The position numbers were made by a program, and so were the translations under genes. Below the pieces are notes generated by a model that was given only the letters and a program-made list of their open reading frames with translations, made no database searches and was not told the origin of the DNA. Below, piece by piece: positions 1,848-45,272 of a stretch of DNA of 64,000 nucleotides (the stretch's first letter is position 1; the number at the start of each line of letters is the position of its first letter). The DNA comes from Curvularia clavata (taxonomy: Eukaryota): NCBI GenBank assembly GCA_023920165.1, contig CP089276.1:4216001-4280000 (forward strand). The letters are read 5' to 3'.

Positions 1848-3036
1848 CTACGCACTAACAACATCGGCCTTCATCTCATACGGCAAGCTACCGAGCTTTG
1901 ACTCCAACACTTCTTTTGTCAATCTCCATAGATTTGACTGTAGCTTCTCATCCTTAGCCTGCTTTGAAGGCTCTTGCACCTTCTTATCAGGGACAATATA
2001 CGAGTTCTATAGCTGTTTTAGCTTGAGTCACACAACAACAAGTGGGGTCCAGTGATGCCTAGTCATTATGGTGATTCATGCTGACAGGGATATCGGCATG
2101 AAGAGTCATATGCATCAGTTGGTTTACAGCTTACCTGAATTTGATCCTTCACGACATCTGGTGATGTCGCCGCAAACAGCGCGGGGCGGCAGCCTTGGGC
2201 CACTGGGTCTTTCATAAAAGGCCGTACCGCATTCACACCAATCTTTCCCACAGTGCCGTATGCTTCTACGGCCTGGTTTTGTTGATCCGTGACTACGCCT
2301 CCAGGGTGTGTTGCGTTGATCCACGGCATGTTCAAACTGTTTGTCACTTGTCCGTATTCACCCGCCTTGATCAGAGAATAGAGTTGGCGGAGGAAAAGGA
2401 TCTGAGCCAGCTTGGTTCGGTTATAGAGTTTCGTGGCGCCGATATCCTGATTGATCTCCTCGATTGACTCAAACTTCATGCTTGAGTCTGCGCCCCTGTG
2501 TAGGTCGGATGACTGGTGTACAATACGGGAGTCTGGGGTCTTTTGCAAGATGGGCAAGAGAACGAGGGTGAGATGAGCCTGTGAGAACACATTGACTTGC
2601 ATATGGCTGTCCAAGCCATCGCGCGTTTCGTTGTATACACCAACACCAAGACCGGCATTGCAAATCAACGCGTCCAGCCTGTCTAGCTCATTTGCCAGCG
2701 ATTTGGCTACTTCGTCCACTTGCTTCAAGTCTTCGAGATTGCACTTCCGCCACTCGACTTTGCTTACATCGCCCCACTCTTTAAGAGCCTTTTGAGCTTC
2801 ATCAGCATGATCTTCCTTATTCGAAAGAAGATAGATCTTAGCAGGGTTGTGTTGGAGGAGATGAGCGACGATGCCGTAGCCAATGCCAGCGGAGCCGCCA
2901 GTCACTACATATACCTGAAGTTGAATTAGTACCTAATTATGTGAGGTGTAATCAAGTGCCTCACCTTTCCGCTCAGGTCAGGAATGTCGGTATTAGGATC
3001 GAAGGCGCCACCAATTGCTTTCTTGATTGTTTCCAT
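1848..3036 (-). CDS. Short-chain dehydrogenase/reductase (retinol dehydrogenase/WWOX-like), 3 exons
   Basis: ATG at 3036 (METIKKAIGGAFDPNTDIPDLSGK), intron ~2915-2964, then VTGGSAGIG, NAG and YNRTK motifs; intron ~2007-2134; last exon NSYIVPDKK...VVSA*. Confidence 0.85.
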
Positions 3037-4424: not shown

Positions 4425-5354
4425 TTAGAAAAAGCCCTTACTCTTTCCAGGTTTAGGGCTCATAGGCCCAAAGAGCTTCATGTCCGTGTTCATCTTCTTG
4501 ACGAACACAAGGTAGGCTTCCAATGCCTCTTCTTGCGTATCAAATGTTTTGTCGCGGTTCATCCACATCTTGAGGTATTTGTCCGCACTGACGTCTTTCA
4601 ACGCCGCGTACCAACCACCTGATGACCGCTGTCGCAGGGAGATGGCTAGGTTCTTGCCTTTGAGGCCAGTGACCTTTGATACTTCGCGCAGACAGGCCTC
4701 GCGCAGGTCCTCGTCTTCGCTATCCTCCTCGTCATCGTCACTGTCAAGCGACGAAGATGATGAACTACGCTGTATTTTTGGGCGCGACGATGTACGTGTC
4801 TGGAGTTTGGGGCGCGCGGTCTTTTTGGGTTCCGGGGCGGGCTTTGATTCGGTCTTCTTTTTGGCGACAACCTTGGGCTCTGGAACCTTTTTCGGCGGTG
4901 CTGCTGCTGCTTTTGTAGTGGGAGGGCTCTTTGATCGCGATTTCTTTTCGCTGGGTCTGGAAGCCTTCTCAACCTTTTCTTTCGAAGGCTTGACCGTCTT
5001 GGATGTGGTGGAAGTAGCTTTGGCTGACTTGGATGAAGTAGTCTTGGATGAGGTTGGCTGTGTCGCCTTTGCTGGCGGCGGCGCTGCTCTCGATTTGAAC
5101 TGTTCGAATGGGCTCGGCCATGCGCCAATAGCCCTAGGCGTCTCTTCCACGGGTGGTGGCGAGTTCTTCTTCGATTTCGCGTCGGCTCTAGAGCCTTTGG
5201 AAGGAGTTTTGGGTTCCGGGGTCGACTTGGATGCTGATGTCGCCTTGATCGGGGGCCCTTTCCTGCCAGTCGAGACTGGAGGCGGAGGTGAGGTTGTGGG
5301 GACGGCGGCCTCTCCAAACAGTTGCCGCGCTCGGTCCTTTACGCTGGGAAACAT
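4425..5354 (-). CDS. Hypothetical protein: Pro/Lys/Ser/Thr-rich disordered region, acidic patch and ~80-aa C-terminal globular-looking domain
   Basis: 309-aa ATG ORF in good context (CACCATG) with coding-like composition; no family recognised. Confidence 0.7.
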   Translation of the reverse strand: MFPSVKDRARQLFGEAAVPTTSPPPPVSTGRKGPPIKATSASKSTPEPKTPSKGSRADAKSKKNSPPPVEETPRAIGAWPSPFEQFKSRAAPPPAKATQPTSSKTTSSKSAKATSTTSKTVKPSKEKVEKASRPSEKKSRSKSPPTTKAAAAPPKKVPEPKVVAKKKTESKPAPEPKKTARPKLQTRTSSRPKIQRSSSSSSLDSDDDEEDSEDEDLREACLREVSKVTGLKGKNLAISLRQRSSGGWYAALKDVSADKYLKMWMNRDKTFDTQEEALEAYLVFVKKMNTDMKLFGPMSPKPGKSKGFF

Positions 5355-6520
5355 GGTGTATGAGAAGCCAGGATGTACTGACTCGAGTAAACTGTGCGCT
5401 TAATTGTGAAGGCGGTGGAGAGGGTGCGATTAGGATTGCGACGCACCACTTTTGCAGCAAAGACAGTGGGCATCAGAACAGTGCGTAAGGGAGAAGGCAG
5501 AGACAGTGCGCAGGTGATGGCGACATTTCTGGAGACGTCGGGATAAGATACGAACCATTCTGGCAGCCTAGTTGGATTGCCAGGACAAGCCACTCGGCGG
5601 CGCACCGGCCACCATGTGAGCCGGAATCTGTTTTTGAAATAAGTGGAACAAGTTAGCGGTCGCTTCTAGAACGCGTGCGATGCGAGCAACGGTAGTAGGG
5701 GTAGTATGTAGGACACATGTCGCGTGAGGCCGCACATGACATGTCCACACGACTCTCGAGCATGGCGGTGTCTTCATCCACAGAACCCAGACGCAAGGCC
5801 GCATGAGATGGCGGGCCTAGGGGAGGGCAATATGCGCAGGCGAGGGCGAAAAGACGAACATGTTGCTTGGACACGTTCAAGGGGCGATGCTTCAACGAGT
5901 GGCCCCTTTCTCGGAACACCGGGCTGTGCGGGAAATTAGCAACGGGATGACCAACGGCGCGGCAAACATTCCTCGGAACGAGGATGATCCCAAGGCTCCG
6001 CAATCTTGAGTTTTTGGATGTCCAGGGCGTCTGGCGCTGATGTTTGTCGAGTGAAAGAGACGACGAGGCATGGCGCGGCGAGCGCTGGTGAGATGCATGG
6101 TATCATGCACGTCAGTCGAGGTGCAGAAACGGGCTCTGCATGCGGTTTAGCGTGCTCCACTCGTGCCCCTTAGCGCCCTCGATTTGCAAGTCACGTTCGG
6201 TCTTCAACACTGCACACGCAACCGCACCAACCGCCTGAGCCTGCTTTGGCCCTCACAACGAGCTCTCACCACATCCGCCAAGATACCCCATCGATGCAGT
6301 GGCCCGTATCAGCTCTCTGCATGATCTCTGAGCGACATCTGAGCATCCCAACCGATTTGTTTCTCCTCTCTCAACGTACACGCCGGAATGCTAGGATACC
6401 CCATTGCGTATACTCATTCCGGTAGTACATGGCCATGCTCCAAAGAATACAGTTTCGTATTGCTCATATCAAATGCTCGTCAACAATGGTGCACTGGAAA
6501 GACTAATTGCTGCCAAATGC

Positions 6521-13877: not shown

Positions 13878-14685
13878 TTATGCGGAGAAACGGCGCATGA
13901 CCTTGGCAATGACTGCTAGCTGTCAGAATTGTTGTTTGCAAAGATGCGACTGAAGATTGCGTACCGTGAAGAGCGACAACGCTGAAGATGAAGACAACAG
14001 ACAGTGTCATGACGACCACGGGGTCGACCTTGAGTCCAGGAGACTCATCAGTGTACAGCCCTAAGGGGTTGAGGTTAGCAGCATTCCCAAGCAGTGTTTC
14101 TTCATTGCATTATTCCTAGTGTCTCTGCGTCGCAGACATGAAAGCTGAGGCATCGCCCATCTCGTATATTGGTACCCCATAGGCGTATAGAGAGTACTTA
14201 CTCAGCATAGTGCTTGAGCTGCCACCGGCACCGGCCGCCCTTGTGCTGCTTGGTCGCTGGTTGGCCGTCTTCTCGGCGCGGTCAGCAGCTGCCTTCCTGC
14301 GCATAACCGTCGCAGGGCCGCCCGGGGGCTTTGGCGACGCAGGACGCGCCGTTGTTGAGCCTGAGGAGGCAGCGTTTGGTGAGGTGGCGCGAGGGGCAGA
14401 CTGTAGTTCCAGTTAGCGGAGATGTTAGGGTGTGGTGAGGTTTGGGTCGTCGATTGGCATGTGAACATTGTGCAAAGGATACTGATTGCGCGCTGATTGT
14501 ACTGGCAGGAGGGCGAATAGATCCAGGCCTTTGCAAGGCGGAATAGCATAATTGCCCTTCCACCCTCTGTTGGCAATGACCTGTCGCCCTCCACGTCCAC
14601 CACATGCTCCTGTGTTGCAATCCACGTGCCGCTTCTCCAATGTCCAATGGTTTCGGGTGCGCTCGAGAGGGGTACAACTGACCAT
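13878..14685 (-). CDS. SBH1: Protein translocon Sec61 beta subunit, 110 aa, 4 exons (not a single ORF in the track)
   Basis: Exons 14683-14685 (ATG only), 14202-14400, 13965-14060 and 13878-13912 sum to 333 nt and give ...RPSSTRAAGAGGSSSTMLRLYTDESPGLKVDPVVVMTLSVVFIFSVVALHVIAKVMRRFSA*. Confidence 0.93.
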
Positions 14686-15457
14686 GATGGGCGATTTGAA
14701 CGGTGACCGGTGCGAGATGGACTGGGTGTGGAAGATGAAAGGTGTCGTGGAGGCTGCTGGCGATAACTCCAACCGAAGTCAAAGGCCACGATTCTGGAGC
14801 TGGGGTTGCCGCGGCGCGCTAACCCTGATCTCGCTTGCGACTCCGCTAGCAGAGGTCACGTGCTAGCTCCCTCATTACCCCGTTACATGAGCAGCAGCCA
14901 TTACTCCCAAACGGGCTGTTTTGTTCAATCGTCAACATATGCATGGTATTATCAGAGCAAAGGCTATGATCATCCGATAACAAGGAATTGTCCCAAACCA
15001 ACTTTTTTTTCCCATTAGACAGTTCCGTTAAATGTACCAGCCATCATAGCCTCCCATGACCATCGAGGCAGCGCCATGCCTGTCGTTCCTTGGTTGTCGG
15101 CGCTCTCGACCCGATTCTGAAAAGCTAGTAATCGATGACCGAAAAGACGTGGTTAGAAAAAGAAAACTCCCGCAAGCACCCATAAACCAACCCATGCCAA
15201 TCCTTGAACCTGCCAGCAGACACCAGTGTAACCCCGCTCGCGAAAAGGTATAATCATCTTCAGCAAGACCCTGAGAAGTGACCCGGCATGCCAATGGTGC
15301 ACTTTGAACCCACACAAAATATTCGCCGACCGTCCCGTTGATCTGCTCCGCCCATGGTAGTAGAAGTAGTTTAAAGACCGACACAGCATGAATGGGACAC
15401 CTGAAATGCAGTAACTCCGGATGTGCATCCTATCCCCCCAAAACAAAACTCCGTTTT

Positions 15458-17017
15458 CTAACCCCAGACTGAAGCCTGCACGCCCTGCGTGGGAGTGTTG
15501 CTCCAGGGTCCATTGTTCCAAATCCCAACGCCCTTGTCCGTAACTGTAGAAGAAGAATTCATAGAAGCCGATGTCGTGGCCGGGTTGTTCTGCTCACTAG
15601 CGCTGTAAGAGTTGTAGCCCAGAGGCGAGGGCAGGGGTGAGTTTGTACGCTTGCCCATGGGGGCACCGCCAGGCTGCTGCAGGTTCTGGTTCTGGGGACG
15701 GGTGCCGATGGGGGCTACGCCAGAACCGTTTGCCTTTTGGCCCGGGACGGGAGGAGAAGCACCAGGCGACGAGTTGGAGGTTCGGCTGGCTTGCTGAGCC
15801 TCGAACAGGTTGAACGTAGGGGCCTGGCCGGCCGAGGGCGAAGAAGTGCTGTTAGCACGCGCATCCTGGCCACTAGCGGCAGCATCCTTGTCGCGCGGTG
15901 GCATTTGGACGGAGCCTTCCCCCGCAGCGTTCTGACCCTGCATACCAAAGGGGTCAAAAGCGAGGGGAGAAGGGCCACGGCCGGCGGCCGAGGTCTGAAC
16001 ACGAACATCCTGGCTCGAGGTTGGGTTGTTGGTATTGTTGTTATTATTGTTGTTATTGGCGTTGCTGTAGAGAGTGGAGGTCTCGCCATATAGGGCACGG
16101 TGCTGGCGGGCGATGAGTTCGCGGCGCTCCTCTTCATTCATGGCATTGGGGCTCATGGAGCGGTCCGACTTGGAGCCTGAGCCCGAAACGTCTGCATTAC
16201 CCTAGTCAACCAACTGTCCTGATTCTATTGTTGCCCAGATTCCGAGTCCTTACTTCTGTGATATTGCTGCTCCTGGTGATAGTTACGTAGCTCACGCTCG
16301 CGCTGGGCCGCCATCCGTCGCTTCGCCTGTGCCATCTGGTCTGCATCGTTGGGCCTGGGCGCATAGCGCTGGTTCTGGTAGAAGCCCTGTACGTTGGAGG
16401 CCGAGTGGGAGCGGGAGCCGTCATAGTCGCTGACCGAGTGATGGCGCTGGGAGCCTCCCATGCGCTGTTGGTCTGTGTATTGTGTCAGTGTGTGTGTATA
16501 TATAATGGATATGGCTTGGGGAGAGGCATACCGTAGTCGGGGTATGGACGAGGGCCAGCTCCCATCATGGGCATGGATTCGCGACGGGCAGCGCCCATGG
16601 GGGTAGGAGGGAATCCAGGACCAAAGGGCTTGCCGCTTTTGGCAAGGTTCTCGATGGCGCGGTCGACCTCTGTGAGTAGTGTTAGCGCAACAAAAACCAT
16701 GTGTTGCAGTGTGCACCAAGATGCTTCATGTAGTGCCACGGCACGGCCATGTAAAAAAGGGTGGCATTGGGCAGACAACATGACAGCAACAGGACATGTT
16801 TGTAAAGAATGGCAACGTACCCTCAAACTGAGAGGCATAAGCATTGGCGACCTCGGTATTGACGGTGGAGCTGGTGCCTATGTTTGGGTAAATGGGTGTT
16901 TATTGGAATATGGGAGCGCATTGGTGTACCTGATCGCGAGGGTGGGGGAGGCTGCTCCCATGAGGACTGTCGGCCAGGAGCTGGGGCGTTCCAGGAAGCG
17001 TCGTTGTAATAGGACAT
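15458..17017 (-). CDS. Hypothetical protein, Q/N/P/S-rich and largely disordered, about 5 exons
   Basis: MSYYNDASW...PPPPSRSG / FEEVDRAIENLAKSGK / QAKRRMAAQRERELRNYHQEQQY / MNEEERRELIARQHRALYG...QASVWG*; canonical introns join ORFs 16823..17131, 16485..16844, 16225..16719 and 15458..16156. Confidence 0.75.
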
Positions 17018-18673
17018 GTTTGTGAGCGTGGGTGCGTATGCGGACTCGGAGCAGTAGCGCCAAAAGGTGGTGGGACTCGATGTTCTGAACAAGGTGGTCA
17101 GCACTGACGGTCTGAGCCAAAACGGGCGCAAACGTCAATTGCAGTTTGCGGCCAGTGACAAGTTTGCGACGGGCGAGTCGAGTCGGCAGAGAGGTGAGGA
17201 GCCGTTTGCGCTTTAGGAGGGGTGCGGGAAATTAGGACGAGGCGGGCAGCGGAAAATTTTGGTGGAGAGGGCGCATGTGGGAGGGGGATACCGAGGGCAC
17301 TCACCTCGAGCGTGCAAAAGGAGCGACAGCTGTCCGCTCAGCAAACGGGCAAGAGTGAAGTCAGCACGAGAAGGACAGCTGGGAGCGGTAGGGTATGGTA
17401 TGGTAGGGGTTGGGAGGGACTCGGGAGATATCGCGGGACTGGGTGAGGATTATGTCGAAAGGGGACACTGGGGACGCTCGACTGCTCGCGCTAGGCAGGC
17501 CGAGCAACGACCTATCCACTTAATTCATCTCCGCTTGGTAGACACGGGCCTCAGCACCTGCAGGCAATTACTTACTTGGTTGCCTCTGTTGCTGCTGCCC
17601 CTCGTACCATGGCGGGCTGGGCCAACGACGGTCGCTTACATGGACGGATACATTGATTCATTGGCAGCCCCAGCGGCCGTGTGCGAGAAGGTGACGGGCG
17701 GGCGATGCAGACGGAGCCATGTGTGGATGACGTTCACGGCGGACAGCTGCAAGGCGTCGTCTTGTGTTGCACGCGCAGCGGGACATGGATCAGATGCGAT
17801 GCAGTGCGGTGTAGTTGGCAGCGCGGTTAGCGAACCGTTGTTCGGCCTTTCACAGCATCGGTTATTCACACCATGCGCGCCTCCTCCTTTTCCCATGGAC
17901 GACACGCGCACATGGCCAGACGCACATGGCTGTGTCTGAGACGCCCTCTGCGCTGGCGCTCGACCGTCTGCGAACGCTGGGTTCGCAGCTCGAGGGAGCG
18001 GCAACAGGCAACGCGACGGCGGGCAAAAGGGAGGGATGCATGCCGTGCCGGGCCATCTGACCATGACCGTCGGCCATGACGGAGCCAACTGAGGGCCTTG
18101 GGCTGCCATGCGGGGCATCCAGCGTCCAAGTGGGCATGCTCGCCAATAGCCACTCTCCAACGACACATGTCTGCAAGAAAAAGTCCACCACCTCTCCTTC
18201 TGCCATCCACATGGCCGGCCGTCTTGCCGCTTGAGGCACCCAATCCGCGCATGGGGCGATGGCATGGAGCGTGGCTACTATCGGAGCCCAGTGCCGACAG
18301 ATATACGACGCTTCCGATTCTATGCTCCTACTTTAGCACATACTAATACCCGTCTACACATTATATTGTCCTTGTAGACGTCCCCACCCCTAGAGCACGT
18401 ATTACACACGGAGCAGGCTTTTGCTTTGTTCGGCTAGCCACGCGCTTCCCGTCTATTTACCCCAGCTTTGCCGTTACGCTAATGGTATACACAGCTAATC
18501 CCCTCCGACTAGTCATCACACGCCTGTAGTTGTAACGGGAATCCGTGCTCCATCACACGTCGCGGGTGCTTCTTTCCTCTCCTCTCCTCTTCTCTTCCTG
18601 CCCGTTTGGGCACGCCTTCTCAACGGCTGCCTCGCTCCTTCCTTCCTCACTTCCTTCCTTCCTTCTCGGCAAA

Positions 18674-36066: not shown

Positions 36067-36683
36067 GTCATTTCATATAGATGAGAAATTGGTTGGAAAT
36101 CTTGTCGACACTGTATGTGTACTCCATATGTCCATGAGTCATCACCTTGGCTGAGATAGTCGTATTGACTTTGATGAATCTACTCAAACTACTTTGGCTG
36201 TTTAGAGTAATGCGGTTCTCTCGCGAGGTGTGATTAGGCAGCTGGCCCTGATCCATAGAGAACTTTTCCGTGGTGACTACTTGCGCTGCTTTTCCGCTAA
36301 GCACTAGCACCCTTTTCCGTTGATTGACGCGTATTCCTCATGTTCAGCTTCGTACGAGCGATAGTATGCGCTGCTTGCTAATGGCGAGTTTTCCGGGCCT
36401 TACGGAAATAATGGCTATGCGATGGAAAGGACTGAGGATACTATACCATGGCGGGTTAGTCTATCTGCTTAGTAGATAGACTTGACGTCACACTTACCGG
36501 AGTTATCTCTTGATAATTGATGGCTAGACTGTCCTCCCATGATAAAAATATCAACCCGTTGTTCATTTGTTATTCGGTGGCTTCTGAAGTGATATATCAA
36601 GTTGAAGAGCGCCACAGTCATAAGTGAGAATTAGAAACACTTCGTTAGCATCGCTTAGTGTACAACATACAACCATTGACACT

Positions 36684-38468
36684 ATGGACCCGGAAAGCGA
36701 GAAGGGAAAAGATATGCATCCATCACCACCCTCCAATGCAAGTATAGACCTAGAGAGCGGAAGAAAATCAAGACCCAGAAGGAGAAGCGCATCGACTATA
36801 GAGACGGTATCGACCAGTACCGAGGATGAGTACGACCCCAATTACGATGGCCACCGACCTACAAGAAAGGAGCTATCCGAGAGCATTTCTCGATCGCGGA
36901 GCCGGCGCAGTGAACTACGAGCAGGGCCCGCAACAGCTAGCGGCATCAATCAAACTCTAAACCGTACCATATCACGCAGAGAGACTGTTCTTTCGCGAAT
37001 CCGCTCTCGACCAAATGTTGCGCCGTTTTCACATCCGCTATCAGGTCAGCCTACATCGACAGATGTCCTAGTCGATTTCGACGGTGAAGATGATCCGTAT
37101 CGTCCGATAAATTGGCCCACAAAGAAGAAGGTCCTGACGACACTTATGTACGGCTTGACGACCATGAGCGCGACATGGGCTTCGTCCTCATATTCTGCCG
37201 GTACCAGACAGATCGCAAGAGAATTCCACGTCGGCAATCAGGTAGCTATCCTAGGTACCACAATCTTTTTATTCGGATTTGGCCTTGGTCCACTCCTCTG
37301 GGCACCCTTATCCGAAGTGTATGGGCGAAGGATAGCGGTTTTAACACCAATGTTCGTCGCAATGTGCTTCAGCTTCGGAAGCGCGGCCGCAAAGGACTTT
37401 CAGACGCTCATGATTACGCGATTCTTTGGCGCCTTCTTTGCCAGTGCACCCGTAACGAATACAGGAGGTGTGCTCGGAGATCTGTACAGCCCTGCATGGC
37501 GAGCAATGGCCATGGCCGGCTATGCAATGGCAGTCGTCGGAGGTCCATGCCTTGGTCCCATTGTCTCCGCAGCTTTTGTCGCGGACCCATCCTTAGGCTG
37601 GCGCTGGACCGAGTACTTTACCGGCATTCTTCAAGCCACTACCCTCGTCATTGACGTCATATTCATCGACGAATGCTACCCACCCAAACTGCTCTTGTAC
37701 AAAGCTCGTCGTCTACGCCACGAAACAGGTAACTGGGCACTGCATACCAAGTTCGAAGAATGGGACGTCAGTATCAAAGAGTTGTCAAAGAAGTTTCTGC
37801 TCCGCCCGGTCCAGCTTCTCACAACACCAATCTGTTTCCTCATGGCACTTTATGCTAGCTTCTGCTACGGAATCTTGTACATGCAACTTGGTGGAATCCC
37901 CATCATCTTCGGGGAAATAAGGGGCTGGCCTGCAGTTAGTGCCACACTGCCCTTTTTGGGCATACTCGTCGGAGCCATCATCGGTTGCAGCATCAACGCC
38001 TACAACCAGATCCTCTACAATAAAGTATACCATGCTGCTGGAAATAGGGCCGTTCCCGAAGCGCGCTTACCTCCCATGATGCTGGGCTCAGTCCTATTTT
38101 CTGCAGGCCAGTTCCTGTTAGGCTGGACAGCGGACCCAAAATTCCACTGGATCGTGCCTATCATAGGGCTAGTCCTAATGGGAACGGGATTCTTTACCAT
38201 TTTCCAGGCTGCGCTGAATTATCTTGTTGATACTTTCACCCTGTATGCAGCGAGTGCGGTGGCGGCAAATACGTTCTTGCGCAGCGCTTTTGCGGGCGCG
38301 TTTCCGCTGGTGGTCACGCCAATGTACCATAATATTGGTGTTGGGCCTGCGAGCACCATCACCGGCGGATTTGCAGCACTGCTCATTCCAGTGCCGTTTG
38401 TATTTTATATGTTTGGGAAGAGGATTAGGAGGGGGAGTAAGTGGAGTCGTCCGAGCGTGTTTGATTAG
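36684..38468 (+). CDS. MFS drug:H+ antiporter, DHA1 family
   Basis: VDFDGEDDPYRPINW, GPLLWAPLSEVYGRR, GGVLGDLY, LGWRWTEY, PEARLPPM, NYLVDTF and ASAVAANTFLRS; first ATG at 36684. Confidence 0.93.
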   Translation: MDPESEKGKDMHPSPPSNASIDLESGRKSRPRRRSASTIETVSTSTEDEYDPNYDGHRPTRKELSESISRSRSRRSELRAGPATASGINQTLNRTISRRETVLSRIRSRPNVAPFSHPLSGQPTSTDVLVDFDGEDDPYRPINWPTKKKVLTTLMYGLTTMSATWASSSYSAGTRQIAREFHVGNQVAILGTTIFLFGFGLGPLLWAPLSEVYGRRIAVLTPMFVAMCFSFGSAAAKDFQTLMITRFFGAFFASAPVTNTGGVLGDLYSPAWRAMAMAGYAMAVVGGPCLGPIVSAAFVADPSLGWRWTEYFTGILQATTLVIDVIFIDECYPPKLLLYKARRLRHETGNWALHTKFEEWDVSIKELSKKFLLRPVQLLTTPICFLMALYASFCYGILYMQLGGIPIIFGEIRGWPAVSATLPFLGILVGAIIGCSINAYNQILYNKVYHAAGNRAVPEARLPPMMLGSVLFSAGQFLLGWTADPKFHWIVPIIGLVLMGTGFFTIFQAALNYLVDTFTLYAASAVAANTFLRSAFAGAFPLVVTPMYHNIGVGPASTITGGFAALLIPVPFVFYMFGKRIRRGSKWSRPSVFD

Positions 38469-38714: not shown

Positions 38715-40278
38715 TCACAAAGGGGGTACATTGGTTTGACTCAACATCATGTTTTTGACCTCAGGAAACACATTTGCAAAGCGATCTGGAAAAGTGCTTA
38801 CGTACGCAGTCCACTCGTCCTGACACTTAGCGCACAATCGAACACCTCCAAAACCATATGAAGGGTCCTCATGAGACTGGTTGTCCTGGCACTGTTGACA
38901 CTTGATAACGTCGCTGGACTCCAGGATCTCTGAGAGACCCTCGAACATCAATTCGGCACTCCTCGAGATAACGTCTTTGTAGCGCTCTACATCTTCAACT
39001 CTGGAGGCTTCGGTGCATCTAGTGTCCCTATGGCCCCAGAGATTGGAGCATTGGCGTGCTTTTTTCATTATGCTCGAATTGTCGGGATGACCAATCGTCA
39101 TGCCGTCTTCAACGAAGCGGTAGCGGCGCACCACTGTACCCGGATGAGTCAGTTGACGCATCTTAGATGAAAGCAAAATATAAGATAAACCTACTCATGT
39201 GGATAGGACCACCGGAAAAGCGCAGGAAATTGGTTATGACAAGGTGTTCGGGTCTGCCCACCCAAGCAACATCTAGAGCCCATAATAGCTGGCGGCACTG
39301 ATGGAAAGCCTTGATGCGAACACGAGGTGGCACATATGCAAATTTCGAATTCTGAATGTATGACAAATTAGTTAGCGCGTGTTTGGAAGGATTAGATACC
39401 AGGTTGTTGCTTACAGTTTCGCCTTCTGAGCGGTGCTTGAAGAAAGCAATGCTATCGTAAAGCGTGCAGCCAAGTTCGCTTAGCAATTCTGACTGCTCCT
39501 CGGTGAGCCAGCAATCATTGAGATCGTTGCAGGCAAGAGCGGCAGCGATAGTGAAACGCAGCAAGGCATCCGTGCCGCGCATACGGAACCACTGTCTGGG
39601 AGACTGGGCGAGTGCAGTGACATAGCGTTGGAACAGCAAGCCTTCACGTCGCGAACTTGCTTTGTCTCCAGTGAAAAGCAGACAGCAGCGTAATTCTCGC
39701 GCCATTTCCGCACTGATGAGATTCGTTAGCTTACTCCGTGTATGGTAAGCACAGACAAACGAGGAGTAGCATGCATCATGTGAATAATAAAAGCTTCGCT
39801 TACTGTACTCGAGTTCCTTTAAACAGCTGGGCTAGAACAGTACTAAGATTATATCCGAGCACATCGTCGGTAGCCGCAACTTGCACCATGGATCCTTTGA
39901 ACTCAGCAATGACTGCAATGATGATAACACGAATGGTAGCGATATATCGGTTCCAGTTAGTGTACTGTGGAACAACGCAACGCACATATTCCCAAGCACA
40001 CGCATATATCTCCTGCTTAATTCGTTCGGGAATGTCCACGCCGTCTAGATCATTGGCAATCTCTTGCGGGTAGTCTAAGGGGTTGGAGTATATTGTTAAC
40101 AAACGTCTTCGATAAGCAGTTGTGGAGACAACGTACACCACTTCTCTTGGATCACGGGTAACGATTGGTCCTGGTCTGAGGGTGAAGGTGTTGAGACGAG
40201 GCGCTAGTGAATGGTTAAAGCGAGATAACACAGAAACTTTAAATCAAAAGGTTGAAAGAAGAAACTTACGTCTTGCAT
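38715..40278 (-). CDS. BcABA3-like non-canonical terpene cyclase (alpha-ionylideneethane synthase family), 406 aa, 6 exons
   Basis: Exons 40270-40278, 40137-40203, 39804-40074, 39415-39712, 39195-39351 and 38715-39133 sum to 1221 nt; motifs WYYPQEIANDL, ACAWEYVRCVVPQYTNWNRY, ALAQSPRQWFRMR, ALACNDL, KHRSEGETN, GGPIHMMVRRYRFVE, CQQC...FGGVRLCAKC match ABA3 as I recall it. Confidence 0.88.
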
Positions 40279-41273
40279 GGTCAAGATTCGTTTGTTCAGT
40301 CTGACAAGGGACCTAGATCACTTGTTATCAAGTTTTATTCTGATACCCTCCTCCCTCACGGTATGTAGCAAACAAGTATAGAGCGTAGAATATGAGCAAT
40401 ATTGTCACGTGAGTCAATCTTTTATCGAGATAGCCAAGTCAGAAGTGAAGCAGGATCTGTCCGCAGTAGATTGAGGTTCTTCGAGGATTCTTGCGAAATG
40501 AAATAGAGTCAAGGGGTCTGATTTTGCTATCAATTAATTGATGAATATTTATGTCAGCAAATATTTTGCATGAGAAAAGCGACGTGAGTTGCTCAGCTAC
40601 GACAGCATCCACACATACCCACAAGAATTATTCATGAAAGCAACAATTCCAACAAATCAAAAAGCCCAGATAGGATATTGATGAAAGTAATGTGTGAAAG
40701 ATGATGTGGTTAAATGCTGCCGCCTGGCTTTCATAGTCTAACGAGATGCCGATAGCTGCACCTTGACGCAATTTCTGGTAACCATATCCTTTCATTGTGT
40801 GAGCAGCTCATGTTGATCAGAGCGCCCCTCGGCTATGAATTCTTTGTTGACAACTCTGCACACTCCAGCTTTCCTATAAACCGAGTAACTAAACTAGGGA
40901 CAACTGTCATGCGAATCTGGCTGGGGTCCTGGCTTGAGTTGGCTTGACTTTGGAGCAACCCCAGCTTGATCGTTAGACTTAGTGAGTTAGTATTACTAAG
41001 CTCAACTTTTCAGCTTGTTGGGCTTGGGTTTATAGCATATCCAAGGAGACTTCCTAGTCAGGGATAGCCCCATGCCTGATCGGAGTATTCACATGACGCT
41101 ATTCTTTTCAGCTCATCAACCAAGCTGAAGAACAGCTTGATTGACGTGTCTGGTCATGCGAACAGTAAATTGAGAAAAGGCTGAATGAACCTAGAATCGC
41201 CTCTTAATTGACGATAACTTGAATATTCATCTTGATTTGCGCGCGTTCTTCCATTCCCCGTGTGTGTAACACC

Positions 41274-42347: not shown

Positions 42348-42754
42348 CTTGAGTTGAGTGGACAATGGATTGGTTATGAGTAGAGGTGCGAACTGCTGGT
42401 AATGGGAAAGCGCGTTTCGCGCGTTTTGGCAGTTGGTGACGCGCCTTGCGGATAGTCACGTGTGCCGGTACCAAAGTCGAGTCTACAAGTATGGTGGGCC
42501 CTCAAGAGACACTACGGTACACTGGCCACTACGTCTCGACGGTTTACGTGCATCCAGCAAGGTCGGGGGAAGAAGAGCTTCGGGAAAGGCAGAGCCAGCC
42601 AGTGGCTGCACGTGCCGGGCGCGTTGCCGCTAATCCTTGTCTCCAAAATTATGCGGTTCCTGGCAGGCGGGCGGCCGGTGACGTTGGCCGCGAGGTGGCT
42701 CACTTGTCGAGCGCGAAATCTGCACATGTAGTTTCTGCGAACACACCACCCTCA

Positions 42755-44050
42755 ATGCGACCAGAGGACCAGCCGGAGGCGCCCAGCGGACCATGGCGCG
42801 CTGCGTCCGTCTTCACAATGGGTGCCGTAGGGCTGCTGTGCAAAGGATTCCTCAACGGACTGAGCAGAGTAGAGACTCATGGCATGGACAAGTTCCTGAA
42901 GCTGCTGGATGAGAGGGAAGACCCTGAGAAAAGGGAGAAGGGACTGATTACTGGTATGCCTTCCAAGATTGTCCAATTGTCCAAGGACCTGTTGAGGCTA
43001 ACTCGGTCGCAGTCTCAAACCATATTTCAGTGTACGTTCGTTTACCGTGACCTCGGCTTCGCGAGGCAAAGGACTGCGCTCATGCAACTCGGACAGAATG
43101 GACGATCCAATCCTTTGGGGCATACTTCCCCTTGGCTACATGTTTAACCCGGACAATTTGAGATGGGGACTTGGAAGCTACGACCTATGCTTCACGAACA
43201 AGTACGTTTGCGTCGGGTTGCGCGTTGCATAGCTAACGGCGACATCAGAGGGCTGTCAACTTTCTTCACCTTCGGGCAAGTTCTGCCTACGCACCGCTCT
43301 GCACACTCGCAATATGGAGGCTTGTTCCAACCCACGATCACGCAGGCGATCCGACTGCTCTCGCGTGGACCTTTTCTGCACGAGCAAGATGCACCGGAGA
43401 AGCCAGCAACATCACTCAAGAGCCCAGACCTCATCGATCCCTTCAGTAGCGGGCACCTTACCTTTTCCACAAACGGCCACGATACATTCCCCGCGCCGTC
43501 TGCATACCGAAACCGGCGCCATGCGTGGGTGCACATCTTCCCCGAGGGCATGATACACCAAAGCGAGCAAAGGATCATGCGCTACTTCAAGTGGGGTGTG
43601 TCGCGACTGATACTGGAGAGCGAACCTATGCCGGACGTGGTGCCCATTTTCGTCGAAGGGTTCGACAACATCATGCACGAGACACGTACATTTCCACGCT
43701 TCATTCCGCGTCCGTTCCAGAATGTACGCGTCACGTTTGGGGAGAAGCTTGATACGGAGGAGGTGTTTGGTGATTTGCGCAGGCGGTGGAAGCAGCTCAT
43801 GGACAACGAGGAACGCAAGGGAGAGAGGCTGGCGGTCGGAGTGCTCAATGACGCGCTCAAGTACTCGGACGAAGCCGTCAGGATACGCAAGGAGTGCACC
43901 CGGCGCATTCGACAGGCAGTGCTTGACGTAAGGCGGCAGCGTGGGTACCCTGACGATGACCCAAAGAACAGCCTTGCGGAAACATGGCTGCGGGAGGGGC
44001 CTCACAGGGAAGGTCGCAAAGAGGACAATACCATCACCAAGGATACCTGA
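42755..44050 (+). CDS. TAZ1: Tafazzin (cardiolipin transacylase), 4 exons
   Basis: GLITVSNHISVMDDPILWG (HX4D) assembled across a 19-nt exon; RWGLGSYDLCFTN, WVHIFPEG, RYFKWGVSRLILE. Confidence 0.92.
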
Positions 44051-44526
44051 GGCGCGCATTTGTAGTGTAGTATTGGATTTTGTGTGTGTACGTACATAGG
44101 CCCAGGGCCAGCCATAGAGAGGCAGAGTGTCGGATTAGATCAAGTAATTACACCCTCAGCGACGCCTGCGAGTGCGCGGCGATCAACCACAGCCGCAGGA
44201 CACGCCCGGGTCGGGTTTTGTCGGTGGGCGCAGAGGCAGGCACCGCGACGCTCGCTGTATGCTGGGTGTCGCGGCCACGGTCTCGGGCGTGCTCGTTATC
44301 GTCATCCACTGTGTGGAGGAGAAGAGTGTGGGTGTGGGCGTGGGCGTGTGTGTTTGGAGGGCGTCTGGGCACGAGTCACGTGCAAAGGGCGGCTTGGCGG
44401 TTGGGCAAGGGCGAGTGGGCAGATAAAACGCGTCCAATGCCCCGCTGGAGCGAGCGGAGCGGATTCGACGGACAGGCACAGAGTGGCAGAAAAGCATTTC
44501 ACCGCCCGCGCCTCAGCACGCTAGAC

Positions 44527-45272
44527 ATGCCCTGCGCTCCACCGTCGCCAGACCAGGACTTATCTTCATACCACGCCCACGCCCATGCCCACGCCCAGAC
44601 TGCTCACCTCCAGCAGCCTCCAGCATACCAGGCCTCTGCCGCCTTCTTCCGTCATTCACCGCCACAGTACCCGCACCCACCGCACCACCACATCCCCCGC
44701 CCCATGCTGCAGACCCAGCCTGCGCCACAGTCCTACATGCCTCGCCATCTAACCACCGAGGAGAGCATGCCAGACGCCGACTACGTACCAGACGCGTCGC
44801 TGCCCCTGGCGGCTGATGCGGGCAGCGGTCTTGGTGCGCCCGACATGCCCAACACCGACCACATCACCATCAAGAACCACTTCCCCGTTGCCCGCATAAA
44901 GCGCATCATGCAGGCCGATGACGACGTGGGAAAGGTAGCTCAGGTCACGCCCGTCGTTGTTTGTACGTACCTCCGCTGGCCCGCGACAATGTGGCTAACC
45001 CCTTTCCAGCAAAAGCGCTCGAGCTCTTCATGATATCTCTCGTCACAAAAGCTGCTGCCGAGGCAAAGTCGCGCAACTCGAAGCGCGTCGGCTCCATCCA
45101 CCTCAAACAAGCCATTGCGAAGACGGACCGCTTTGACTTCCTCAACGAGATTGTGTCCAAGGTCGCCGATGCGCCTGAGAAAAGCGAGGGCGACAATGCC
45201 GACGCCGATGGAAAGAAGAAGAAGACGTCGAGTCGGAAAAAGAAAAAGGCCGACAGTGACGACGACTTTTGA
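44527..45272 (+). CDS. BUR6: NC2 alpha (DRAP1/Bur6) histone-fold transcriptional repressor; start uncertain (44527 or 44767)
   Basis: [27 protein letters not shown] / [11 protein letters not shown]...HLKQAI...FDFL; intron ~44963-45009. Confidence 0.88.

Follow-up and report, generated by a model that had tools for sequence, protein, structure and literature searches.

On the minus strand of a 64-kb stretch of Curvularia clavata contig CP089276.1 (positions 4,216,001 to 4,280,000; hereafter the window, numbered from its first letter) lies a gene that encodes a protein of the ABA3 class of terpene cyclases. The gene runs from 40278 to 38715 and, with the splice borders tested by script, joins six exons across five GT..AG introns with typical fungal donors into a coding sequence of 1221 nt, that is 406 codons and a TGA stop (Table 1). 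An in-frame stop lies 13 codons 5' of the ATG. A reading of this DNA made from its letters alone, referred to below as the sequence-only reading, had put the protein together from three fragmentary open reading frames (ORFs) and two small 5' exons, and this assembly of six exons proved correct. The spliced 406-residue product is identical, residue for residue, to C. clavata yc1106_05156 (P0001), listed as 'uncharacterized protein', and the gene model agrees with that existing annotation. The ORF fragments of the gene span 39800-40243, 39163-39831 and 38715-39194; exons 4 and 5 share one of them because intron 4 is open and in frame. An uninterrupted, longer exon drawn from the ORF at 39800-40243 was considered and ruled out, as intron 2 is skipped in three sequencing runs and the spliced N-terminus aligns with the WYYP motif.

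Table 1. Features of the cyclase gene and two genes of the same region, in window coordinates. X1, X2 and X5 are public sequencing runs.
Feature	Position	Strand	Evidence or remark
Exon 1 (ATG CAA GAC; Met1-Asp3)	40270..40278	-	joint 40203/40270 in X1, X2 and X5 contigs
Intron 1, 66 nt, GTAAGT..AG	40204..40269	-	skipped in X1, X2 and X5 contigs
Exon 2, 67 nt; variable N-terminal region until the conserved WYYP	40137..40203	-	splice test and alignment
Intron 2, 62 nt, GTACGT..AG	40075..40136	-	skipped in X1, X2 and X5
Exon 3, 271 nt; Y55, I76, V80, Mg-binding Glu83 (codon 39902-39904)	39804..40074	-	splice test and alignment
Intron 3, 91 nt, GTAAGC..AG, CTAAC branch-like site	39713..39803	-	skipped in X1, X2 and X5; one X1 contig reads through
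Exon 4, 298 nt, most conserved core	39415..39712	-	phmmer against PDB and alignment
Exon 4 residues: Cys126 (codon 39682-39684), Q144, R161, G162, L166, Y201, K208, H209	39415..39712	-	
Intron 4, 63 nt, GTAAGC..AG, open in frame yet spliced out	39352..39414	-	skipped in X1, X2 and X5
Exon 5, 157 nt; Ser261 (codon 39214-39216)	39195..39351	-	splice test and alignment
Intron 5, 61 nt, GTAGGT..AG, CTGAC branch-like site	39134..39194	-	skipped in X2 and X5
Exon 6 and TGA; RY pair R271/Y272, cap loop N298/H302, Cys4 zinc site C346, C349, C368, C371	38715..39133	-	
5' untranslated region	40279..40600	-	contigs
Short-chain dehydrogenase/reductase yc1106_05144 (adh_short match)	2069-2932	-	36 kb from the cyclase gene
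Major facilitator superfamily transporter, polyamine/multidrug type, convergent	36624-38468	+	stop 247 bp from the cyclase stop

The protein is, virtually beyond doubt, a member of the ABA3 class of non-canonical, class-I-type cyclases. This class was defined by Li et al. 2025 and according to their paper three of its members have been assayed in vitro (PMC11695735). The family assignment had already been made in the sequence-only reading, and it is upheld here by sequence identity, by matches in the PDB that are confined to ABA3 sequences and by the predicted fold. BcABA3 of Botrytis cinerea (P0022) is 55% identical over 92% of the length (E 6.7e-139) and abl3 of Leptosphaeria maculans (P0031) is 53% identical (E 1.6e-135). 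Of the 2884 candidates in a full-length search, 252 proved to be relatives at E<=0.001. A phmmer search over 1.84 billion cluster representatives gave 201 matches at E<=0.001, 59 of them at E<=1e-30, and the family is therefore a compact one. Exon 4 on its own, run with phmmer against the PDB, matched 8zad (E 2.2e-42), 8zac (E 4.1e-42) and 8zaf/8zag (about 1e-21), so that all four matched sequences are ABA3 proteins. Pfam gave no relevant family for the exons or the whole protein, with no terpene-synthase match at E<=1, and none of the 120 relatives listed carries a precomputed Pfam domain. A regular-expression search of P0001 likewise found no DDxxD/E, NSE/DTE or DxDD motif.

The fold was modelled with AlphaFold2 from a 60-sequence alignment, giving a pLDDT of 84.6 and a pTM of 0.87. 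Low confidence is limited to the N-terminus and residues ~270-310, and the stretch that matches these residues is disordered in apo crystal structures of ABA3 proteins (PMC11695735). When the model was submitted to Foldseek the best nine chains were all ABA3 structures (TMt 0.88-0.95), with 8zac_A at a TMt of 0.94 and an E value of 8e-28; CotB2 and pentalenene synthase rank after the ABA3 chains and far behind them. The model thus predicts the all-alpha, terpene-cyclase-like core with extra C-terminal helices.

Residues described for BcABA3 (PMC11695735) were mapped onto the window protein via a 10-sequence and a 124-sequence alignment. The Mg-chelating glutamate, E124 in BcABA3, corresponds to E83, and all 124 sequences have Glu in this column. 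The diphosphate-binding residues R202, Y242, K249, H250, R312 and Y313 correspond to R161, Y201, K208, H209, R271 and Y272, and the zinc-binding cysteines C384, C387, C407 and C410 to C346, C349, C368 and C371; all of these are kept. Within the hydrocarbon pocket, Y96, I117, F167, L207 and F302 of BcABA3 are needed for product formation (PMC11695735). Three of these are retained as Y55, I76 and L166, and I121 is replaced by Val80, but the two phenylalanines are lost, leaving the protein without the full pocket of an alpha-ionylideneethane synthase. F167 aligns with Cys126, in a column that holds Phe in 106 of the 124 sequences and Cys in the window protein only, and F302 aligns with Ser261, in a column with Phe in 100 and Ser in four. 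Just three of the 124 sequences are non-aromatic at both sites. The consequences of losing either side chain are known from BcABA3, where the F167A and F302A variants still ionise farnesyl diphosphate (FPP), yielding a trace of (E)-beta-farnesene and no ionylideneethane (PMC11695735). The sequence-only reading had suggested that this copy may make a different terpene, and the alignment of F167 and F302 with Cys126 and Ser261 gives that suggestion specific support.

Phylogenies were built with FastTree from 124 proteins and with IQ-TREE (LG+C20) from 36 rows, chosen to include the paralogs found in Pleosporales, the enzymes already characterised and examples of the other groups; the remaining 88 of the 124 rows were omitted for run time only. 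The window protein falls in a five-member Pleosporaceae clade with a support of 100/99 in IQ-TREE, and FastTree is concordant. Its clade-mates are Exserohilum turcicum P0023, which is partial, Pyrenophora tritici-repentis 02409 (P0010), P. teres (P0011) and Alternaria ethzedia 002792 (P0018), and the branching within the clade presumably follows the species tree. Separate clades hold abl3 with P. tritici-repentis 09579 (99/97), a Bipolaris/Alternaria/Pyrenophora group (100/100) and BcABA3 (96/87). The window protein shares a clade with neither abl3 nor BcABA3, and these separate, supported clades therefore make it a paralog, not an ortholog, of both. P. tritici-repentis has copies in three of these lineages. 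The sequence-only reading had called the protein divergent, which is true to a moderate degree, given its 55% identity with BcABA3, its separate, well-supported clade and its long, accelerated branch. The four clade-mates keep the family residues at the pocket and cap-loop sites wherever they are aligned.

Eleven public runs (X1-X11) matched the locus, and contigs of four of them (X1, X2, X5 and X11) were compared with the window. X1, X2 and X5 come from two studies, and the organism sequenced in them is ~99% identical to the window. In X2 and X5, individual contigs join over all five introns with borders exactly as predicted, the skipped ends being CT..AC on the plus strand and hence GT..AG on the gene strand. 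Intron 5 was aligned as 39130/39195 with three letters between, which is equivalent to a skip of 39134-39194 together with a C>T change at 39131. X1 contigs join over four introns, and other X1 pieces read through introns 3 and 4. These joints independently support the five introns that had been proposed from the letters alone, in full in X2 and X5 and for four introns in X1. Contigs of X11 cover intron sequence and have no joints. The simplest reading is that the X1, X2 and X5 contigs are assembled spliced mRNA, and the gene is apparently transcribed. We also observed an optional skip of 240 nt in the 5' leader (40313-40552), present in X1 and X5 contigs and absent from X2. Its ends are CT..AT on the plus strand, not a clean GT..AG; either an alternative intron of the leader or an artefact of assembly may lie behind it. 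The X11 contigs (organism D, depth 2.3-2.4) show single-base gaps at 38722 and 39668 within the coding region and several extra non-synonymous differences (A151V, Y146H, T130P), which could be sequencing errors or point to a broken copy in another strain.

The window allele can also be compared with a second one, that of the close relative, as read from its contigs. Seven coding differences are listed, two synonymous and five non-synonymous; from window to relative the latter read C51R, Q144R, G162D, V269M and S311F. At positions 144, 162 and 269 the relative has the family-majority residue (105, 115 and 116 of 123, respectively), making the window allele the derived one, whereas at position 51 the relative is derived and position 311 is a variable column. 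The derived R144Q, D162G and M269V changes of the window allele may lower activity. The relative also carries an in-frame deletion of 9 nt near codon 104 and one further, unlisted difference in exon 5. None of the listed differences falls in the codons of Cys126, Ser261 or Val80, and the pocket changes are therefore older than the split between the two. RIP-like mutation (repeat-induced point mutation) was rejected as the source of the strain differences; read on the coding strand, the three changes derived in the window are G>A, A>G and A>G.

To place the gene in its surroundings, all stop-to-stop ORFs of at least 60 amino acids in the window, 441 in number (127 + 129 + 150 + 35), were scanned against Pfam. 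The ORFs with matches are mostly ordinary cellular genes: a HAD hydrolase, a short-chain dehydrogenase/reductase (SDR), a pyridine-nucleotide oxidoreductase, an amino-acid permease, a fungal rhodopsin-domain protein, Sec61beta, an aldo-keto reductase, a P4-ATPase flippase, an F-box protein, a RING/NOSIP-like protein, a GDSL lipase, Sin1, PRCC and GH92. The neighbours of the cyclase gene are a major facilitator superfamily (MFS) transporter, the RING protein, Sin1, PRCC, the flippase and Sec61beta. Not one of the 441 ORFs matches a cytochrome P450, and the SDR in Table 1 is the only one with an adh_short match, both as the sequence-only reading had it. The clustering with two P450 genes (aba1 and aba2) and an SDR gene (aba4) is thus absent from the window. 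The SDR was rejected as an ABA4 candidate, being a conserved gene of the bli-4 type: it shares 91% identity with the counterpart in Exserohilum and 66-91% across the Dothideomycetes, and its relatives go by the names 'oxidoreductase bli-4' or 'WW domain-containing oxidoreductase', with no ABA4 among the 120 matches listed. Between Curvularia and Exserohilum this SDR identity of 91% stands against ~63% for the cyclase, a large contrast in rate inside one 64-kb region.

The convergent MFS gene, the one neighbour that might be relevant to the cyclase, ends close to the cyclase gene, and single contigs in X2 and X5 span both, as expected from unstranded assembly of overlapping 3' ends. The pairing alone is weak evidence. 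Elsewhere in the window the ORFs 42440-44050 (+) and 44071-45033 (+) are long and without a Pfam match at E<=1e-4; by eye we take the former to resemble a tafazzin-type acyltransferase and the latter an NC2/DRAP1-like histone-fold protein. Further long ORFs without a Pfam family lie at 14205-18332 (-) and 4428-5400, the latter open for ~300 amino acids on both strands.

We read the gene as coding for a cyclase that is expressed and whose product chemistry is altered or impaired, and we put a probability of about one half on an active enzyme whose product would differ from ionylideneethane. Such an enzyme would bind FPP, and the Mg cluster held by Glu83, acting with R161, K208, H209, R271, Y201 and Y272, would trigger loss of the diphosphate as in BcABA3. 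The BcABA3 route would then lead through beta-farnesene and allofarnesene to closure of the C6-C11 ring, which is unlikely to be completed here because Cys and Ser replace two phenylalanines of the late steps. The product would be an acyclic farnesene-type olefin released early, or a sesquiterpene (C15) that is cyclised or folded differently, and not (2Z,4E)-alpha-ionylideneethane; as the product is probably not ionylideneethane, the gene would not be expected to serve abscisic-acid synthesis. A bolder proposal, which we regard as doubtful, is that the cyclase has been re-tooled. Cys and Ser in place of the bulky pocket phenylalanines would enlarge the cavity, the product would be a sesquiterpene with a new scaffold or the substrate a longer prenyl diphosphate, and the convergent MFS transporter could be the exporter. 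The replacement of F113 by Thr, which helix periodicity would place one helical turn away, possibly adds to the enlargement of the cavity. If this proposal were true, the locus would hold the first fungal ABA3-class enzyme with a product other than abscisic acid, together with a two-gene 'mini-cluster'.

Several observations weigh against an active enzyme with a product of its own. The pocket assignment is an alignment to BcABA3 numbering, not a reading of coordinates, and the pocket changes could just inactivate late cyclisation, as the BcABA3 alanine mutants suggest. The run type, RNA, is a guess for X1-X10 and is on record for none of the eleven runs, and the support for splicing consists of the intron-skipping joints. 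The cap loop carries Asn298 where BcABA3 has K339 and 100% of the other sequences have Lys, and His302 where BcABA3 has R343 and 99% have Arg. At columns that are at least 90% conserved the window protein departs from the majority in 12 of 116 (10.3%), the fifth-highest share among the 124 sequences; the median is 3.4%, and the clade-mates lie at 3.4-5.0%. In Tajima-type relative-rate comparisons the changes unique to Curvularia exceed those unique to Exserohilum by 48 to 20 (p=0.0007) and 52 to 18 (p=5e-5). The same holds against Pyrenophora (56 to 31, p=0.007; 53 to 32, p=0.02), but when Alternaria serves as outgroup the counts of 39 and 27 do not differ significantly (p=0.14); in a control pair that leaves out Curvularia the two sides are even (33 to 26, p=0.36). 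The omega value of ~0.7 between the two alleles, taken from seven changes, rejects values of 0.1 or less (p=0.015) and does not reject 0.2 or more.

Much of this would also fit a decaying or catalytically crippled paralog, transcribed and spliced under relaxed constraint and on its way to loss, as perhaps has already happened in Bipolaris. The Curvularia end branch, at 0.7, is the longest in its clade, compared with 0.42 for the sister, 0.43 for a further member and 0.06 and 0.11 for Pyrenophora, and four of the five relative-rate comparisons with Curvularia are significant. Two of the altered conserved columns are the K298N and R302H sites of the cap loop, the window allele is the derived one at R144Q, D162G and M269V, and the differences from the relative are five non-synonymous to two synonymous. 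Among the 120 matches listed there is no close Bipolaris orthologue, the two Bipolaris copies being 48-49% identical and in another clade, and the flanking SDR has kept far more identity with Exserohilum than the cyclase has. Loss of either pocket phenylalanine abolishes product formation in the F167A and F302A variants of BcABA3 (PMC11695735). Set against this, 1221 nt and five introns have come through without a stop, a frameshift or a broken splice site, all 11 metal- and diphosphate-binding residues are intact, the spliced form is found in three runs of two studies, the one indel of the relative is a multiple of three (9 nt) and the fold is predicted with confidence. Eleven other family members are off the majority at 11 or more conserved columns, and an omega drawn from seven changes is still compatible with 0.2-0.3. 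Long-standing neutrality is made less likely by the unbroken frame, the sound splice sites, the relative's frame-preserving indel and the spliced contigs; we regard decay as a serious alternative, less probable than an active enzyme with a changed product.

The least likely account is that the protein is a canonical alpha-ionylideneethane synthase that supplies abscisic-acid synthesis, with the P450 and SDR genes of the pathway scattered elsewhere in the genome. It would explain the overall identity of 53-55% with BcABA3 and abl3, the complete set of ionisation residues and the four of seven named pocket residues that are unchanged (Y55, I76, L166 and Y201), with I121V a conservative change. 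Wherever the four clade-mates are aligned at the two pocket sites they have Phe, so that the clade may originally have had the canonical function. The window protein itself sits in a paralog clade apart from BcABA3 and abl3, as the comparison with canonical ABA3 enzymes in the phylogeny made clear, and carries F167C and F302S at the very sites whose alanine mutants yield no ionylideneethane (PMC11695735). The window, moreover, offers no P450 and, as its sole SDR, a widely conserved bli-4-type gene. We found no report of abscisic-acid production by C. clavata, and the 15 papers listed, of 57, on abscisic-acid gene clusters and Curvularia held nothing relevant; the one Curvularia metabolite review consulted, searched for the word only, mentions abscisic acid in one passage, on plant genes.

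The family, its odd chemistry and structure and the existence of homologues without ABA genes were already known, and the protein is in public databases. In particular, the literature already mentions ABA3 homologues that stand alone in organisms lacking ABA genes (PMC11695735, there citing Takino et al. 2018); within the BcABA3 literature, as judged by title and the start of the abstract, we found no other paper on divergent ABA3 homologues. New here are the assignment of the protein to a paralog lineage of the Pleosporaceae, the substitutions in its pocket and cap loop, its accelerated evolution and the evidence for splicing. Pleosporaceae carry at least three paralogous ABA3-class lineages, one of them unlinked to any ABA genes. 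There is no Pfam model for ABA3-class cyclases, and they are missed by genome mining with classical terpene-synthase profiles. Nor should each match to 'ABA3' be taken to show that a fungus makes abscisic acid. Mutagenesis has shown two pocket positions to control late cyclisation, and both are naturally substituted in this protein; it is therefore a cheap yet informative choice for finding new products and for testing how the pocket dictates the product. It is a reasonable target for enzymology rather than a surprise.

Two features of the wider family emerged from these comparisons. The ABA3-class homologues P0023 (Exserohilum turcicum) and P0026 (Gnomoniopsis smithogilvyi) are labelled 'Molybdenum cofactor sulfurase' by their source. 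Plant ABA3 is a molybdenum cofactor sulfurase, and the shared name apparently gave rise to the label, which is incorrect for these cyclases. Two actinomycete proteins, P0065 of Umezawaea endophytica and P0007 of Spirillospora sp., share 53% and 38-42% identity with the fungal protein and nest beside Podospora and Trichoderma sequences (support 100/99), not as a deep outgroup, which suggests that ABA3-class genes may have been transferred between fungi and actinomycetes. Bacterial ABA3 homologues have been mentioned before (PMC11695735).

Among characterised systems the closest in predicted fold are BcABA3, the (2Z,4E)-alpha-ionylideneethane synthase of B. cinerea (PDB 8ZAC), and RuABA3 (8ZAD/8ZAE), at a TMt of 0.94-0.95. 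Like BcABA3 the window protein has the Mg-binding Glu, the six diphosphate residues and the Cys4 zinc site, and lacks Asp-rich motifs. It differs from BcABA3 in its paralog clade, in having no adjacent P450 or SDR genes, in its short N-terminal extension and in five residues, with Cys for F167, Ser for F302, Val for I121, Asn for K339 and His for R343. The enzyme abl3 of L. maculans (Plenodomus lingam) comes from the same order, Pleosporales, and has the same catalytic residues at 53% identity. Its database source names it alpha-ionylideneethane synthase, and it presumably lies in an ABA gene cluster. Unlike the window protein it keeps Phe at both pocket sites, and it is a paralog, not an ortholog. 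Within the clade itself the orthologues P0010, P0011, P0023 and P0018 are 60-63% identical to the window protein and keep Phe167, Phe302 (where aligned), D203, M310, K339 and R343, at all of which the window protein is altered.

More distant is SkABA3 of the bacterium Shimazuella kribbensis (PDB 8ZAF/8ZAG), which has the same class and fold (TMt 0.88-0.90) at 35-37% identity. SkABA3 converts FPP to a C15 product other than ionylideneethane, the structure of which is unsolved, and its zinc site is Cys3Ser (PMC11695735). It is therefore a precedent for an ABA3-class enzyme with a different C15 product. The canonical class I cyclases, such as CotB2 and pentalenene synthase, share the alpha-helical core, with CotB2 chains at a TMt of ~0.52-0.59 and a probability of 0.99-1.0, and the RY pair for diphosphate binding is common to them and the ABA3 class (PMC11695735). 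Unlike these enzymes the window protein has no DDxxD/E or NSE/DTE motif and no Pfam terpene-synthase match. The ABA3 class as a whole is set apart from canonical class I cyclases by a single Glu that bears the Mg cluster, four extra C-terminal helices and the zinc site (PMC11695735).

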